Sequence record: DRR378314_685
Direction: 5' to 3' (one strand)
DNA: 64,000 nt
A program made the translations under genes and the position numbers. This document shows, in pieces, positions 3,855-34,541 of the stretch. How positions within the stretch are numbered: position 1 is the stretch's first letter; each line of letters begins with the position of its first letter. The notes below the pieces were generated by a model. The model did no database searches. It had not been told where the DNA came from and saw nothing but the letters and a program-made list of their open reading frames with translations.

Positions 3855-4478
3855 TCAGCCCTTGCCAGCCATGCGCAGGAATCGGTTGCGCAGGTCTGCA
3901 TCAGATTTGAACACGCCCGTGAATTGCGTGGTGATCGTGCTGACATCCTTGTGGTGAACGCCGCGCGTGGACATGCATTCGTGGACGGCATCAATCAGGA
4001 CAGCCGTGCCCATAGGGGCCAGGCTTTCGGTGATCGCATCACAGATTTGCGCTGTCATGGTTTCCTGTGTTTGCAAGCGCTTGGAAAAGATCTCCACGAC
4101 ACGTGCCAGTTTGGAAATACCTACAACGGCTGCCGATGGCATATAGGCCACGTAAGCCTTGCCGAGGAAAGGCGCCATGTGGTGTTCGCAATGGCTTTCC
4201 ACGTCAATGCTGCGCAGCATGACGATGTCGTCATAGCCCTGCACGTCTTCAAAGGTGCGTGACAGGTACTTTACCGGGTCTTCGTCATAGCCGGAGAACC
4301 ATTCCTTGTAGGCATTGACCACGCGTTTTGGCGTATCAAGCAGGCCTTCACGCTGTGGATCGTCGCCAGCCCATGCAATGAGCGTGCGAACGGCCTCTTC
4401 AGCTTCCTGAACGGTGGGGCGCTTCACAGGCTCAGCGCGTGCCTTGTCTTTATTGGGAGTGATGGCGTCCATTGCCAT
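3855..4478 (-). CDS. folE: GTP cyclohydrolase I
   Basis: REGLLDTPKRV, SHCEHHMAPF, GISKLAR, RLQTQE, HECMSTRGV. Confidence 0.96.
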   Translation of the reverse strand: MAMDAITPNKDKARAEPVKRPTVQEAEEAVRTLIAWAGDDPQREGLLDTPKRVVNAYKEWFSGYDEDPVKYLSRTFEDVQGYDDIVMLRSIDVESHCEHHMAPFLGKAYVAYMPSAAVVGISKLARVVEIFSKRLQTQETMTAQICDAITESLAPMGTAVLIDAVHECMSTRGVHHKDVSTITTQFTGVFKSDADLRNRFLRMAGKG

Positions 4479-4496
4479 GATTGAAGTTTCCTTCGA

Positions 4497-4594
4497 CTGA
4501 GGGACGGGGGTCGAGCCGAGGCTTGGTCTGGGAAAGCGCGTTCATCTTGCTCCCCTGCCCGGACTTAACGCCCGCCCGGAGTTGATACCCTCAG
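4497..4594 (-). ncRNA. Candidate structured cis-regulatory RNA in the folE leader (THF-riboswitch-like)
   Basis: Closing helix CUGAGGG/CCCUCAG; internal GCGUUAAGU and GACCAA junction strands; ends 3 nt before the AAGGAA SD. Confidence 0.5.
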
Positions 4595-4713
4595 GGCGAT
4601 ATGAGGAACATAAGGGCGTGAATGCCCTGTTTCCAGCCCTTTCTACGGTGACGTTGCGCCAGTGGATGAGTCATTTCTTGGCTTTTTTGTACGTCGATGA
4701 TACTGGCTCGCGA

Positions 4714-4764
4714 ATGAAAACGATCCGATTTCACCGTTGTTCTGCCTGCTGCTGTTGCTGTTGA
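4714..4764 (+). CDS. Cys-rich leader peptide MKTIRFHRCSACCCCC upstream of cysS
   Basis: 16 codons with 6 Cys, 5 of them consecutive before the stop; ends 82 nt before the cysS ATG. Confidence 0.8.
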   Translation: MKTIRFHRCSACCCCC

Positions 4765-4846
4765 CGCCTCAACGCGCCATTAGGGCTGGCCATATATTCC
4801 CGAAGCCAGCGCATTCCTCAGACTTTCGAAATCGAGCCATAAGACC

Positions 4847-6232
4847 ATGACAATCCGCCTTTATGACACCGCCGCGCGCGAAAAGCGCGTATTCGAGCCG
4901 CAGGATCCGGCCCGGGTCACGATGTATGTCTGCGGGCCGACCGTCTACAATTACGCCCATATCGGCAATGCGCGCCCGCCCATCGTATTTGACACGCTGC
5001 GGCGTCTGCTGATGCGGGTGTATGGTGAGGAAGCTGTCGTCTATGCACGCAACATCACCGACATCGAAGACAAGATCATCAAGGCGAGCCAGGAGAGCGG
5101 TCAGCCGATTGTGGAGATCACCCGGAAATTCGCGGACATCTACAATGCTGACACGACGGCGCTGAACGTTCTGCCTCCGAGCATCGAGCCGTGGGCGACG
5201 CAGCATGTCGGCGAGATGATCGACATGATCGAAAAGCTTGTTCGCAAGGGCTATGCCTATGTCGGCAAGGAAGGCGTCTGGTTCTCCGTCAAGGCCATGT
5301 CCGACTATGGCAAGCTGTCAGGTCGCAAGCTGGAAGACAATGAAGCCGGCGCGCGGGTTGCGGTCGATGCGGACAAGCGCGATCCGGCAGATTTTGCCCT
5401 CTGGAAGTTCGCCAAGCCCGGCGAGCCGGAAGACGCGATCTGGGATAGCCCGTGGGGCAGGGGACGCCCCGGCTGGCATATCGAATGCTCGGCCATGGCC
5501 GCGAAACATCTTGGCAAGACGATCGACATTCATGGCGGCGGGATTGATTTGCAATTCCCTCATCATGAGAACGAGATTGCCCAATCCGAATGTGCGCACG
5601 GCGAGGTGATGGCGAATTACTGGTTGCACAATGGCTTCCTCGACATGGGCGGCGAGAAGATGTCGAAGTCTCTCGGCAATGTCGTCCTGGTTCACGACCT
5701 GCTCCAGAAATGGCCGGGCGAGGTGCTGCGCTTTGCGATGTTGAGCGGGCATTATCGCGCGCCCCTGGACTGGACCGAAGACCTGCTGAAACAGGCAAAG
5801 ACGACACTCGACCGCATCTATGGCGCACTTCGCCGGGTCTGGGCCGCTGAAGGCGGAGAGATCGATGACCGCGGCGTGTTTGATGCGCTGTGTGATGACC
5901 TGAATACGCCGGAGGCGTTGGCGTCCCTTTCCCGTCTGGCAGGGGAAGCGAACACCGCTGCCGACAAAGGCGATGTTGACGCCATGGCGACGGCACGCGC
6001 CAACCTGCTGGATGCAGGGGCGTTTCTCGGCCTGCTGACGATGACGCCGACAAGCTGGGAACAGGGCGGCGATGATGACGACAAGGCGCGAATTGATGCG
6101 CTTGTTCAGGCCCGGATTGATGCCCGCGCGGCAAAGGATTGGGCAGAGGCAGATCGTATTCGCGATGAACTTGCTGCCGAAGGTATCGAGATCATGGATG
6201 GGGCAGGCGGCTCGACCTGGAGACGGGCCTGA
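4847..6232 (+). CDS. cysS: Cysteine--tRNA ligase
   Basis: MYVCGPTVY, HIGN, GRPGWHIECS, FPHHENE, KMSKS. Confidence 0.98.
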   Translation: MTIRLYDTAAREKRVFEPQDPARVTMYVCGPTVYNYAHIGNARPPIVFDTLRRLLMRVYGEEAVVYARNITDIEDKIIKASQESGQPIVEITRKFADIYNADTTALNVLPPSIEPWATQHVGEMIDMIEKLVRKGYAYVGKEGVWFSVKAMSDYGKLSGRKLEDNEAGARVAVDADKRDPADFALWKFAKPGEPEDAIWDSPWGRGRPGWHIECSAMAAKHLGKTIDIHGGGIDLQFPHHENEIAQSECAHGEVMANYWLHNGFLDMGGEKMSKSLGNVVLVHDLLQKWPGEVLRFAMLSGHYRAPLDWTEDLLKQAKTTLDRIYGALRRVWAAEGGEIDDRGVFDALCDDLNTPEALASLSRLAGEANTAADKGDVDAMATARANLLDAGAFLGLLTMTPTSWEQGGDDDDKARIDALVQARIDARAAKDWAEADRIRDELAAEGIEIMDGAGGSTWRRA

Positions 6233-6429: not shown

Positions 6430-6888
6430 ATGAGCGAGCTATATCATAACCGCGTCCTGGAACTGGCAGCTGGCATCCCGCATGTTGGCGATCTGGAGTC
6501 GCCGGACGGGTCCGTGCTGAAAGTGTCCCGCGTTTGCGGATCGACCGTGAAAGTGGACCTGACACTGGACGAGGCAGGCGAGCGCGTGACCGCGATTGCT
6601 GTAGATCCCAAGGCCTGCGCGCTGGGGCAGGCCGCGACATCGATCCTGGCCGAACATGCCGTTGGCGCGACGATTGAAGAAATCATCGCGGCGCGCGATG
6701 CGCTGAAAGACATGTTGAAGGACAATGGCCCCCCACCGGAAGGCCGGTTCTGGGAGCTGCGCCATCTTGAGCCCGTGGCGGACTATCCACCGCGGCACAC
6801 ATCGACCCTGCTGGCATTTGAGGCGGCTGTCGCGGCCATCGATGAGGCACTCGCCAGTCGCGGATTGTCGCGAGCGGCAGCGAATTGA
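6430..6888 (+). CDS. IscU/NifU N-terminal-like Fe-S scaffold protein
   Basis: SRVCGS, KACALGQAA, RHTSTLL; alternative ATG at 6418. Confidence 0.82.
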   Translation: MSELYHNRVLELAAGIPHVGDLESPDGSVLKVSRVCGSTVKVDLTLDEAGERVTAIAVDPKACALGQAATSILAEHAVGATIEEIIAARDALKDMLKDNGPPPEGRFWELRHLEPVADYPPRHTSTLLAFEAAVAAIDEALASRGLSRAAAN

Positions 6889-6889
6889 G

Positions 6890-7237
6890 ATGGCCGGGCT
6901 GAGGCGGCACGCGGCGGAGAGCTTGCTTTGGCTCTACAAACACGGGCCGAGCCAGATTTTCTATGCCTTCGGCGCACGTTGCCAGCACACACCGACTTGC
7001 AGCGAATATGGCGCTGAATGTGTTGCGCGCTTCGGTTGGTGGCCGGGCATCTGGATGGCGCTGGCGCGTTTTATCCGGTGCAGGCCGGGTGGGAGTCTTG
7101 GAAGAGATCCTGTGCCCGAATCCCTACCGAAAGTGCCGTTCTGGCAGCCTTGGCGATATGGCGAATGGTCAGCCGGGAAGGTGATGGCGCGAATTGAAAA
7201 CCGGAACGCGTCGTGCCATATAAATTGCAATGAGTGA
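6890..7237 (+). CDS. yidD: Membrane protein insertion efficiency factor
   Basis: CQHTPTCSEY...RFIRCRPGG...DPVP. Confidence 0.88.
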   Translation: MAGLRRHAAESLLWLYKHGPSQIFYAFGARCQHTPTCSEYGAECVARFGWWPGIWMALARFIRCRPGGSLGRDPVPESLPKVPFWQPWRYGEWSAGKVMARIENRNASCHINCNE

Positions 7238-7514: not shown

Positions 7515-9497
7515 ATGATCAAAGTTTCCCTGCCAGACGGCTCCGTTCGAGAATATGAAGACGGTGCGTCTCCGTTCGATGTCGCCAAATCCATTTCCAA
7601 CTCCCTTGCCAAGAAAGCGCTCGCCGCGCGTGTTGATGGCGAACTGAGGGATCTGATGCGCCCGCTTGAGGGGGATGCCAGCATTGAGATCGTCACGGCG
7701 AATGATGCCGATGGCCTTGAACTGATCCGCCATGACGCGGCGCATGTGCTCGCCCAGGCGGTGCAGGAACTCTATCCCGATGCACAGGTCACGATCGGAC
7801 CGGTGATCGATGATGGCTTTTATTACGACTTCGCCCGCGAGGAGCCTTTCTCAACGGAAGACTTCGAAAAGATCGAGAAGAAGATGCGCGAGATTGTCGA
7901 TGCAGACTATCCGATCATCCGCGAAGTCTGGGCGAAGGAAGATGCCATCGAGACGTTCAAGAAGATCGGCGAAGATTACAAGGCTCAGATCATCGACGAC
8001 ATCATCCCGCCGGGCGAACCGATCACGGTCTACAAGCAGGGCGAGTGGTTTGATCTGTGCCGGGGGCCGCATCTGCCATCGACGGGCAAATTGCCAAAAG
8101 CCTTCAAACTGATGAAGTTGGCGGGTGCGTACTGGCGCGGGGACTCGAAGAACGAGATGCTGCAGCGCATGTACGGCACGGCCTGGGCGAACGAGAAAGA
8201 CCTGAAAGCGCATCTCACGCGTCTGGAAGAGGCCGAGAAGCGCGACCACCGCAAGCTGGCCACGCAGCTGGACCTGTTCCATCTCGATGGCCTCGCTGCG
8301 GCGGGCTCCATCTTCTGGCATCCGAAAGGGTATCAGATCTGGCGTCAGATTGAATCCTACATGCGTCGCCGCCTCGATGCGGCAGGCTATGAAGAGATCA
8401 AGACGCCGCAGCTGATGGACTCCGTTCAGTGGGAGAAATCCGGTCACTGGGGTAAGTATCGCGAGAACATGTTCATCGTTCCGGATTTCATTCCGGAAGG
8501 GGATGAAGGCGTTGAAATCTCCGTGCCGGAAGATGCCAAGCTGATGGCGCTGAAGCCAATGAACTGCCCGGCGCATGTCGAAGTGTTCAAGCAGGGCCAG
8601 AAATCATATCGTGACCTGCCGCTTCGCCTTGCAGAATTCGGATGCTGTCACCGCAACGAGCCGCATGGCGCGCTGCACGGCATCATGCGCGTTCGTCAGT
8701 TCACGCAGGACGATGCACATATCTTCTGCCGTGAAGACCAGATCGTCGAGGAATCCATCAAGTTCTGTCGCCTCTTGGAAAGTGTTTATCGTGACTTCGG
8801 CTTTGAAGACATTGCGGTGAAACTGTCCACGCGTCCGGATGTGCGTGCCGGCAGTGACGAGACGTGGGACCGGGCCGAGAAAGGCCTTCAGGAGGCGGTC
8901 GATGCGGCGGGCCTGCCATGTGAGATCATGCCGGGCGAGGGGGCATTCTATGGTCCGAAGCTGGAATTCCAGCTGACGGATGCGATTGGCCGCGTCTGGC
9001 AGTGTGGCACGCTGCAGCTGGACTATGTGCTGCCCGAGCGTCTCGGCGCAGAATACACGGCGCCGGATGGATCGAAGCAGCGCCCCGTCATGCTGCATCG
9101 CGCGATCCTGGGATCGATGGAGCGGTTCATCGGTATCCTGATCGAAGAATTCTCGGGTGCGTTCCCGCTCTGGCTTTCGCCCGTGCAGGTCGTGGTCGCG
9201 GCGATCACAGATGCAGCGAACGAGTATGCCGAAGAGGCCGCTGAAGCCCTTCGTAAGGCAGGCCTGCGCGTTGAGACAGATCTTCGCAATGAGAAGATCA
9301 ACTACAAGGTCCGCGAACACTCCGTTCAGAAGGTCCCGATCATCGCGGTAGTCGGCGGACGCGAAGCGGAAGATCGTACGCTCGCGCTTCGCCGCCTGGG
9401 CAGCAATGGTCAGCAGATGATCTCTCTGGATGACGCATGTGTAGACCTCGCGCAGGAAGCACTGGCGCCTGACCTGAAGGTCAGCAGCGCCGAATAG
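7515..9497 (+). CDS. thrS: Threonine--tRNA ligase
   Basis: TGS domain, [43 protein letters not shown]. Confidence 0.98.
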
Positions 9498-14002: not shown

Positions 14003-14376
14003 TCTTCGCTGCCGGGTTTGAAGCTTGCCTCTTCAGCGCCGTGATGGAGCTGGAGGTTCAGCAGCACACCTTTTGCGACCGGGAGCAACCAGAGCGACAA
14101 TCCCACAACGGCTGCACACAGCACGATGAACGCAATGATCATCGGCACCAATGGCAATGGGCTCATCGGCAGCAGGAACAGGAATGGCGCGAGCAGCAAC
14201 AGCACGCCAAACCCGACGAAAAAGGCGGGTCCGTCCGCCGTATCGGCTGATGACATGTCCCGCCCGCAAACCGGGCATGTCTCGTGCAGTTTGAGGTAGG
14301 AGCTGTACAGCTTGCCCTCACCACACTGGCCGCAGCGTTGTCGAATTCCGGAAAGGATGGGGGAGGGTTGGCTCAT
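13999..14376 (-). CDS. DUF983-like membrane protein
   Basis: CGQCGEGKLY...CPVCG...DGPAFF followed by two TM helices. Confidence 0.82.
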   Translation of the reverse strand: MSQPSPILSGIRQRCGQCGEGKLYSSYLKLHETCPVCGRDMSSADTADGPAFFVGFGVLLLLAPFLFLLPMSPLPLVPMIIAFIVLCAAVVGLSLWLLPVAKGVLLNLQLHHGAEEASFKPGSED

Positions 14377-33849: not shown

Positions 33850-34541
33850 GCGTTCACCCCTGCGCGGTTGATGTCACTCAAATCGACCGCGCGGTCGAAA
33901 TGATCAGCAAGTCCGGCATCATGGCTGACAAACAGCAGCGCCGCGCCTGTGCGCTGGGCTTCCTCACTCAGCAGGCTGATGAACTGGTCCCGTACATGGG
34001 CGTCCAGCGCAGAGGTCGGCTCGTCGGCGATCACGATTTCAGGACCACCGATCAGGGCCCGTGCCGCCGCCACGCGCTGTTGCTGCCCGACTGACAGGTC
34101 AGACACGCGCCGCGAGAGAAGGGATTCATCCGTCAGGCCCAGCCGTGCAAGCAGGCGGCGAGCCTCGTTCTCTTCCGTTCCGTCGATGGCTGCCCGCCGT
34201 TTTGGCGAAAACCGCAGCGGAAGCGTGACATTTCCGATGACGGACAGATACGGCACCAGATTGAACATCTGGAAGATGACGCCCAGATGATCTGCTCTCA
34301 GCCGGTCGCGAGTGGCAGGCTTCAGTGTCGTCAGCTCATGCCCCAGAATCTGCACGCTGCCAGAGCCTGCTTCCAGAACGCCCGCAACAATGCCGAGCAA
34401 GGTGGACTTGCCGGAGCCCGATGCCCCGCGCAAGAACAAACGCTCGCCAGCGTTCAGCGTGAACGACTCAATGTCGAGCACATCGCGGCCAAGAGCCCAC
34501 GCAAAGCGCAGATCCGAGATCGAGACGACCGGGTCCGTCAT
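33846..34541 (-). CDS. ABC transporter ATP-binding protein (ZrgB-like)
   Basis: GASGSGKST, LSVGQQQRV, IADEPT. Confidence 0.93.
   Translation of the reverse strand: MTDPVVSISDLRFAWALGRDVLDIESFTLNAGERLFLRGASGSGKSTLLGIVAGVLEAGSGSVQILGHELTTLKPATRDRLRADHLGVIFQMFNLVPYLSVIGNVTLPLRFSPKRRAAIDGTEENEARRLLARLGLTDESLLSRRVSDLSVGQQQRVAAARALIGGPEIVIADEPTSALDAHVRDQFISLLSEEAQRTGAALLFVSHDAGLADHFDRAVDLSDINRAGVNA

Follow-up and report, generated by a model that had tools for sequence, protein, structure and literature searches.

The 64,000-nt stretch of sequence record DRR378314_685 (here called the window, at its full length) contains a 16-codon upstream open reading frame (uORF) with six Cys codons directly ahead of cysS, the gene for cysteinyl-tRNA synthetase. 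We consider the uORF, with a probability of about 0.7, to be a regulatory leader of cysS that senses the charging of tRNA-Cys; the explanation as a whole, including the mechanism proposed below, is held to be probable with a little less confidence. An initial annotation of this DNA had interpreted the uORF as a Cys-tRNA-sensing leader, and this interpretation is supported, as far as sequence reaches, by the in-frame conservation of the Cys codons and by the promoter spacing. Such an element is a lineage-restricted, terminator-less variant of a published kind and not a new principle. The features central to this reading are as follows.

4714..4764, + strand: leader ORF MKTIRFHRCSACCCCC followed by TGA, 16 codons, probably leaderless (read from the window sequence).
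4738-4740 (codon 9) and 4747-4761 (codons 12-16), + strand: Cys codons of the uORF, the presumed stall site.
4765..4846, + strand: spacer of 82 nt between the uORF stop and cysS.
4847..6232, + strand: cysS, cysteinyl-tRNA synthetase, 461 aa, the presumed regulated gene, assigned by Pfam and homology.

The region 4300-5100 of the window was read codon by codon. The uORF starts with the ATG at 4714-4716, stops with the TGA at 4762-4764, and reads ATG AAA ACG ATC CGA TTT CAC CGT TGT TCT GCC TGC TGC TGT TGC TGT TGA. Its Cys codons are TGT (9), TGC (12), TGC (13), TGT (14), TGC (15), and TGT (16). The start, the stop, the mixed TGT/TGC usage, and the 82-nt distance to cysS agree to the base with the initial annotation, which had also reported that the uORF has no Shine-Dalgarno (SD) sequence; GGAG, GAGG, and AGGA are all missing from the 20 nt 5' of the ATG. 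The identity of cysS was assigned from the Pfam domains tRNA-synt_1e (E 1.7e-123), DALR_2, and CysS_C. The uORF lies in the 368-bp intergenic region between cysS and the divergently oriented folE (GTP cyclohydrolase I, 3855-4478, opposite strand). No tRNA-Cys gene was found in the 64-kb window.

The Cys run of the uORF is not chance. CCCCC at 4747 is the sole run of at least five Cys residues in the six-frame translation of all 64 kb. None of 100 dinucleotide-preserving shuffles produced such a run, and those of at least four Cys numbered 0.16 per shuffle on average. Cys accounts for 1.1% of the codons (101/9394) in long ORFs with high GC at third codon positions; at this background, the binomial probability of at least six Cys in 15 codons is 7e-9. 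The other Cys runs of the window, CCCC at 14204 (- strand) and CCC at 34078, 30102, 39838, and 30976, were rejected as leaders; all lie in long off-frame stretches. An apparent enrichment of TGT in the uORF (3/6 versus 30% in long ORFs) was likewise set aside, the number of codons being too small to be meaningful.

Species-representative genomes were scanned with the CysS protein, and the best 80 of at least 600 matching stretches (L001-L080) were compared. The best matches listed were Hyphomonas beringensis (L001, 87% CysS identity), a Hyphomonas metagenome-assembled genome (MAG; L002, 79%), and a Pseudomonadota MAG (L003, 68%). The remaining 77 loci encode CysS proteins of 44-59% identity and come from across the Proteobacteria and beyond. 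Hyphomonas currently belongs to the order Hyphomonadales and was formerly placed in the Rhodobacterales. Comparison of the Hyphomonas-type leader covers three genomes, namely the window, L001, and L002, the last two with the following orthologous uORFs.

L001, 1869-1919, + strand: MFDVRFALCPACCCCR, 16 codons, ending 81 nt 5' of cysS.
L002, 1871-1921, + strand: MTLSMFTVSYRCTCCC, 16 codons, ending 79 nt 5' of cysS.

Cys occupies uORF positions 12, 14, and 15 in all three genomes, and the run takes the form CCCCC in the window, CCCC in L001, and C-T-CCC in L002. In the order window/L001/L002, the codons are TGC/TGT/TGC at position 12, TGC/TGC/TGT at position 15, and TGT/CGT/TGC at position 16. 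Besides Cys, the only residues common to the three peptides are Met1 and Phe6. Of the alignment columns, 9 of 33 are invariant across codons 1-11 and 11 of 18 from codon 12 through the stop codon; the proportion rises to 22 of 26 in the first 26 nt after the stop and falls to 5 of 22 beyond. A Cys run not conserved in frame had been named in the initial annotation as a result that would refute its reading. The outcome favors that reading, as the run was kept, with TGC/TGT swaps at Cys codons while other codons diverged. Longer in-frame extensions (a 60-aa ORF starting with TTG in the window and upstream ATGs in L001) were not conserved. Stop-codon read-through into a conserved in-frame PLGLA was considered and rejected; the L001 stop is TAA, and the substitutions show no synonymous pattern.

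L003 contains another small ORF on its + strand (1939-2004), 21 codons long, MTFHRDWFKSPSNQDNKQEKC, whose last sense codon is a single Cys and whose TGA overlaps the ATG of cysS (ATGCTGA). This layout suggests translational coupling instead of the Hyphomonas arrangement.

The sequence 5' of the uORF contains a promoter-like pair of hexamers.

4678..4683, + strand: -35-like hexamer TTGGCT; CTTGGC is invariant in the window, L001, and L002 (alignment columns 18-23).
4701..4706, + strand: -10-like hexamer TACTGG, 17 nt past the -35-like hexamer and 7 nt 5' of the ATG; T42, A43, G46, and G47 are invariant.

Invariant columns upstream of the uORF cluster in CTTGGC and in T-A-n-n-G-G, and the 17-nt spacer between them is not conserved. 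The second block lies 7 nt from the ATG in the window, 6 nt in L001, and 7 nt in L002. The initial annotation had described TTGGCT-N17-TACTGG ending 7 nt 5' of the ATG and had suggested a leaderless mRNA; the pair is present as described, and its conservation together with the 6-7 nt distance in three of three genomes fits that suggestion. Alphaproteobacterial housekeeping promoters have a CTTGAC-like -35 and a CTA-containing -10, which would fit as well. The missing SD and the spacing of the ATG from the -10-like hexamer, which is that of a usual transcription start, are most simply explained by a leaderless mRNA. The composite pattern TTGGC-N18-TAnnKK-N6/7-ATG matched once in the window versus 0.02 matches expected, and 2 of 100 shuffles contained a match. 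Among the 80 loci, it occurred exactly at the uORF ATG of L001, L002, and L070 (the uORF of the last is preceded by TTGGCG), and also in two unrelated places (L004 and L021). The pattern was built from the same four sequences (window, L001, L002, and L070), and its counts therefore demonstrate the rarity of the layout, not a successful prediction.

Cys-dense uORFs ahead of cysS were then surveyed in other lineages. The 300 nt 5' of cysS were searched for ATG ORFs of at most 40 aa with at least three Cys in any five residues; 78 loci had enough upstream sequence for this search, and the other two were omitted. Such uORFs were found at six loci (L001, L002, L014, L048, L070, and L078). The controls gave 0/78 on the reverse strand of this region and 2/76, 1/74, 0/76, and 1/74 in four further 300-nt regions of these loci, 4/378 in sum. 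The excess has a Fisher p of 0.0025, and p = 0.03 (4/76) when the two Hyphomonas loci are removed. A looser scan (ATG ORFs of at most 40 aa with CC, within 350 nt) gave 10 loci versus 4 on the reverse strand. Most of the cysS genes surveyed, those of Paracoccus (L037) and Asticcacaulis (L008) among them, lack a uORF of this kind.

The uORF of L070, a Rhodobacteraceae MAG, is MTTTCIICCCITG (1864-1905, + strand). It ends 95 nt 5' of cysS and is unalignable to the Hyphomonas uORFs, and its layout, TTGGCG-N17-TAGGTT-N6-ATG, is as in the Hyphomonas leaders. No U-run terminator was called at L070, and its fold is not notable (z = -0.41). Dongia sedimenti (L014) has an independent, unalignable uORF, MTDCCCGCD (1938-1967, + strand), 33 nt 5' of cysS. 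The ORF of L048, an alphaproteobacterial MAG, is MTHQSCSCKKCDCHGNCGKNCACGCCK (1862-1945, + strand), with 27 aa, nine Cys, and a good SD (AAAGGAG), 55 nt 5' of cysS; its product may be a small protein resembling metallothionein, or the ORF may be a Cys leader of unusual length. L078 is the weakest case of the survey, its uORF lying 214 nt from cysS.

Downstream of the Cys codons, the leader contains a conserved block and several predicted helices.

4775..4790, + strand: invariant block CGCCATTAGGGCTGGC, 16 nt, identical in the window, L001, and L002.
4785..4810, + strand: hairpin 2 (H5), GCTGGC 4785-4790 paired with GCCAGC 4805-4810, 6 bp, 14-nt loop, no U-tract (sequence and folding).
4745..4784, + strand: consensus hairpin 1 (H3 and H4), formed by the Cys tract and stop codon on one side and ..UCAACGCG..UAGG on the other (RNAalifold).
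4726..4740, + strand: 5' strands of the predicted long-range helices H1 and H2, in uORF codons 5-9 (RNAalifold).
4818..4834, + strand: 3' strands of predicted H1 and H2, 13-29 nt 5' of the cysS ATG (RNAalifold).

The GCTGGC/GCCAGC hairpin was found as the initial annotation had described it, and a U-tract is missing in all three genomes. The 16-nt block is the best-conserved part of the leader, stricter than the Cys codons, and the uORF peptides share almost only Cys. Its start coincides approximately with the front edge expected for a ribosome halted at the last Cys codons. CGCCATTAGGGCTGGC has a single exact site in the window, with 4 matches at up to 3 mismatches versus 1.16 expected, and its core occurs in 2 of the 80 loci (L001 and L002 only). 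This conservation seems to exceed what pairing alone requires, and the block may be a factor-binding or switch sequence. Two identifications of the block were tried and rejected. The T-box idea arose from the likeness of AUUAGGGCUGG, with its AUUAGGG..UGG, to the T-box sequence; the T-box covariance model, which comprises the Stem I specifier and the antiterminator, gave no match at E <=10 in 4400-4950 or at gathering score in L001-L003, the UGG lies inside hairpin 2, and UGGC would not match U73, the discriminator of tRNA-Cys. A second promoter, a sigma-54 site, or a regulon operator, judged by eye, was rejected because the -10/-12 candidates are not conserved in L002 and the block is unique in the window. 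No known RNA family of Rfam 15 was found in 4400-4950 at E <=10 beyond noise (PhotoRC-I, E 0.94; HOTAIR_3, E 2.9), and none reached gathering score in L001-L003.

The following mechanism is proposed. Transcription would probably start at, or 1 nt 5' of, the A of ATG 4714, from the conserved TTGGCT-N17-TACTGG pair; because the message would begin there, a 70S ribosome could start on the leaderless 16-codon message. When charged tRNA-Cys is plentiful, the ribosome would pass the six Cys codons, terminate at the TGA at 4762, and leave. The freed leader would then fold, with the Cys tract pairing with the conserved post-stop sequence and codons 5-9 pairing with the region 13-29 nt 5' of the cysS ATG, and cysS expression would be low. 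When charged tRNA-Cys is scarce, the ribosome would stall on codons 9-16; its footprint would hold these pairings open and cover the first post-stop nucleotides, and cysS expression would rise. The output would not be an intrinsic terminator. We tentatively prefer, as the most likely output, that the initiation region of cysS, which is SD-poor, becomes unmasked in the manner of mycobacterial Ms5788A; within the sensor reading this output stands somewhat ahead of Rho-dependent control, and other outputs make up the remainder. Rho polarity may reinforce the unmasking.

The nearest published element is uORFC-8-2, with 145 examples located solely 5' of cysS in Rhodobacterales and a seed in Ruegeria sp. 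TM1040, as described in the available part of Brewer et al. (2021, RNA Biol, PMC8632094). According to that description, these uORFs start with AUG, have tandem Cys codons, usually at positions 14 and 15, in a UGC/UGU mix, and form two stems with the Cys codons in the first and a U run after the second in all cases (PMC8632094). The authors read them as ribosome-mediated transcription attenuation, as a bioinformatic prediction without experiment (PMC8632094). The Hyphomonas uORF is similar in that it lies 5' of an alphaproteobacterial cysS on the same strand (82, 81, and 79 nt away), starts with AUG, mixes UGC and UGU, and has Cys at positions 14 and 15 in three of three genomes. The proposed logic is also alike, a stall at Cys codons leading to more CysS. 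As for the first stem, the Hyphomonas hairpin 4745-4784 holds Cys codons 12-16, with a predicted probability of 0.03 in the window, 0.75 in L002, and 0 in L001. Unlike uORFC-8-2, the three Hyphomonas leaders have no U run after the second stem, contain 4-6 Cys instead of 2, are apparently leaderless, carry the 16-nt post-stop block, and belong to the Hyphomonadales. The Hyphomonas element is not filed as a uORFC-8-2 member, because it lacks the terminator although the gene context and the Cys at 14 and 15 agree; it is set apart by the published description of the motif. The novelty implied by the initial annotation is nevertheless weaker, since a Cys-codon uORF 5' of alphaproteobacterial cysS is in print as uORFC-8-2, as far as the available part of that paper describes it (PMC8632094). 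No report of a cysS uORF beyond Brewer et al. (2021) was found in the literature, and none on a cysS leader peptide in alphaproteobacteria; in the available excerpts on Caulobacter leaderless cysteine uORFs, none was found to treat this element.

Poly-Cys leaderless small ORFs (sORFs) of mycobacteria, such as Ms5788A, are shown in the available part of Canestrari et al. (bioRxiv 10.1101/834739) to be Cys-responsive translational attenuators in which the Cys tract pairs with a downstream SD in a very stable duplex, with no terminator. The same excerpts state that, in 2020, cysteine still had no described leader-peptide attenuator (bioRxiv 10.1101/834739). Like these sORFs, the Hyphomonas uORF is apparently leaderless, carries consecutive Cys codons at its 3' end (codons 12-16 of 16), lies about 80-100 nt from its gene, and has no intrinsic terminator. 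A stalled ribosome keeps the inhibitory duplex open in mycobacteria, and the same is proposed here. The Cys tract of the Hyphomonas leader differs in being predicted to pair with the post-stop sequence and not with the ribosome-binding site of cysS; only codons 5-9 are predicted, weakly, to reach the cysS upstream region. The target also differs, being a synthetase gene and not a Cys-metabolic operon, as does the phylum. Deinococcus deserti cysS has a leaderless leader of 10 codons with two Cys and a transcription start mapped at the AUG, as given in the available part of de Groot et al. (2014, PMC4007540). Both leaders place Cys codons directly 5' of cysS, the Hyphomonas start being leaderless by inference only; the Deinococcus leader, with its 10 codons and two Cys, comes from an unrelated phylum and shares no sequence similarity, and its mechanism is likewise putative.

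The pheM-pheST and trpL leaders are equipped with an SD and with two mutually exclusive hairpins, a terminator with its U tract and an antiterminator. The Hyphomonas leader shares with them a run of cognate codons in a short leader ORF before a gene for the same amino acid, and the target of pheM is also an aminoacyl-tRNA synthetase; it lacks both the SD and such hairpins. The leader tnaC responds, through its nascent peptide, to free tryptophan and not to tRNA charging, and its output is Rho-dependent. As in tnaC-tnaA, the presumed Hyphomonas stall site abuts the uORF stop, where a stalled ribosome would occlude the RNA just 3' of it, and no intrinsic terminator is present. The proposed Hyphomonas signal, unlike that of tnaC, is tRNA charging, and its rut site is only putative.

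Several results weigh against the reading of the uORF as a Cys-tRNA-sensing leader. The generic sigma-70 scan called 0 promoter sites because the -10-like hexamer ends in G and the final T is missing, and the promoter case rests on conservation instead. The element is present in only three related genomes of those examined, and L003 keeps the folE-cysS synteny and has no Cys run. A covariance model built from the three leaders scores them at E ~1e-21 to 1e-27 and finds no further member in the 80 loci and the window; the next best match (E = 0.34) is the palindromic hairpin 2 on the opposite strand. Since the model found nothing else, the element appears, at the sequence level, to be limited to a genus-level Hyphomonas group. 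The 16-nt block is also conserved more strictly than the proposed mechanism demands.

Folding results stand on both sides. The high share of paired cells in the consensus structure, its four pairs with two-sided changes, and the response of L002 to a modelled stall, all given below, count in favor of the leader reading, and the other folding results count against it. The window leader (4714-4870) has a minimum free energy (MFE) of -28.9 kcal/mol (z = +0.97), a stability equalled or exceeded by 170 of 200 shuffles. The leader of L001 folds at -48.8 kcal/mol (z = -2.74) into a different long hairpin, with the Cys tract paired with the 3' arm of hairpin 2, and that of L002 folds at -45.0 kcal/mol (z = -2.17); the three MFE structures disagree. 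The RNAalifold consensus of the three sequences has 30 pairs in five helices, with 90.9% of cells paired versus 32-50% when partners are slid, a count that is biased because the structure came from the same three sequences. H3 and H4 have 91.7% and 92.6% of cells paired, with no compensatory change in either. Changes on both sides occur in four pairs, all among the 11 of H1 and H2, and 10 of 500 shuffles do likewise; the covariation term of the consensus is unfavorable (+1.01). Most consensus helices have near-zero probability in single sequences. The window gives 0.68 for H1, 0.01 for H2, 0.19 for H3, 0.03 for H4, and 0.97 for H5; L002 gives 0.75 for H4, 0.01 for H5, 0 for H1 and H2, and near 0 for the rest; and L001 gives ~0 for all helices, with 0.00 for hairpin 2. 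A stalled ribosome was modelled by forcing nt -12 to +14 around codon 9, 12, 14, or 16 to be unpaired, and accessibility was read as the mean unpaired probability of the cysS initiation region (-20 to +10). The modelled stall raised accessibility from 0.28 to 0.51 in L002; the response was near flat in the window (0.54 to at most 0.60) and in L001 (0.49 to at most 0.53). No shared alternative pairing of the terminator/antiterminator type was found across the folds of the three leaders. The folding tests give no decision between Rho-dependent and translational control.

The output of the same sensor could instead be primarily Rho-dependent, as in tnaC, which we regard as possible and less likely than translational unmasking. 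Rho would load on the naked C-rich RNA after the stop and end transcription before or early in cysS, and a ribosome stalled on the last Cys codons beside the stop would cover the loading site and block Rho. This fits the lack of an intrinsic terminator in any of the three genomes; the scan found none in the window, and the spacers (82, 81, and 79 nt in the window, L001, and L002) contain no U tract, their longest T runs being 3, 2, and 2. Because the Cys codons run right up to the stop, the footprint of a stalled ribosome would extend over the first ~12-15 nt past it. In each of the three genomes, C is frequent and G scarce in the 18 nt that follow the stop (8C/3G, 8C/3G, and 6C/4G), the C/G ratio of the window spacer is 1.65, and the weak, inconsistent predictions of RNA switching suit a mechanism without alternative hairpins. 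However, the excess of C over G is inconsistent over the whole spacer as a proxy for a rut site (1.15 in L001 and 1.00 in L002), 82 nt is short for Rho loading and release before cysS translation starts, and the invariant block holds the G-rich AGGGCUGG, which is untypical of a rut site. A more speculative version, which we consider rather unlikely, makes the 16-nt block itself the output device, with the stalled ribosome hiding or exposing a sequence-specific site for Rho, an RNase, or another factor. If true, this would be tnaC-like factor-dependent attenuation, governed by tRNA charging and acting on a synthetase gene, which is not described in Alphaproteobacteria. Classical attenuation at an intrinsic terminator, with the leader a plain uORFC-8-2 member, hairpin 2 the terminator, and hairpin 1 the Cys-codon stem, is the least probable of the explanations weighed. 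The cysS gene, the AUG uORF, Cys at 14 and 15, and two stems with Cys codons in the first all agree with it, but hairpin 2 is short, with only 6 bp closing a 14-nt loop, and in its degenerate L002 form can make just four of these pairs, and the terminator scan made no call. The short T runs given above stand against the U run that the available description reports in all uORFC-8-2 cases (PMC8632094).

Two further explanations dispense with the sensor. The uORF might be real without a regulatory effect, or a chance ORF, its conservation deriving from an overlapping RNA or DNA element formed by the block and its pairing partner. The best-conserved sequence does lie after the stop, outside the ORF, and since the Cys codons contain the GUUG that forms the 5' arm of hairpin 1, UGU-UGC could be maintained by pairing. 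We nonetheless find this quite improbable. The Cys run did not arise in any of the 100 shuffles, and Cys is retained through TGC/TGT swaps at positions 12, 15, and 16, a constraint that pairing by itself would not impose there. All three uORFs have 16 codons and a conserved start codon at a conserved distance from the promoter-like site, and unrelated lineages show an excess of Cys uORFs before cysS too. Alternatively, the peptide itself could matter, as a small Cys-rich metal- or redox-active product that merely adjoins cysS; its conserved Cys residues and the metallothionein-like look of the 27-aa, nine-Cys ORF of L048, with its good SD 55 nt 5' of cysS, would agree. Against this, the peptides of the three species have no conserved residue beyond Met1, Phe6, and Cys, and they differ in how many Cys they contain and where; the 16 residues end in a bare Cys run with no fold-like pattern, and a location right before the gene of the cognate synthetase is expected under the sensor model. 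A peptide product is slightly less credible to us than a uORF without effect, and both are improbable next to a Cys-tRNA-sensing leader.

A separate conserved element was observed in the same intergenic region. This riboswitch-like element of ~100 nt lies directly 5' of folE, in its 5' UTR, at window positions ~4487-4600 on the minus strand. In the relatives, it lies on the minus strands at ~1650-1760 (L001), ~1660-1750 (L002), and ~1790-1895 (L003), and it is conserved nearly letter for letter in the window, L001, L002, and even L003, despite 68% CysS identity. An outer helix, CUGAGGG/CCCUCAG, ends just before the SD-like AAGGA of folE, and a variable insert of 0 to ~45 nt lies in the middle. 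All 23 predicted pairs are invariant or changed on one side, and none is changed on both sides. Of the 80 loci, L001-L003 alone contain the core CGGGCGGGCGTTAAGTCCG. No Rfam match to the element was obtained at E <=10 in the searched 4400-4950 or at gathering score in L001-L003. The THF-II riboswitch, which is the known folE motif, has ~62 nt and is reported only from Rhizobiales and metagenomes, according to the available part of the source (PMC6800512). The element could be a divergent THF-II riboswitch or an undescribed folE-associated RNA. Downstream of cysS, a YidD-domain ORF (6725-7237, + strand, 170 aa as listed, domain at residues 66-130) is followed by thrS (7515-9497, + strand, 660 aa); two aminoacyl-tRNA synthetase genes, cysS and thrS, thus lie within ~3 kb of each other.

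A uORF of alphaproteobacterial cysS has so far been predicted only, and the principle of a Cys-codon leader will itself be unsurprising to specialists. The Hyphomonas uORF is a putatively translated small ORF of a type that annotation pipelines miss. With six Cys among its 16 codons, no terminator, and a start that is apparently leaderless, it offers a compact candidate and could reveal how charged-tRNA signalling reaches a synthetase gene without an intrinsic terminator and what role the conserved post-stop block plays.

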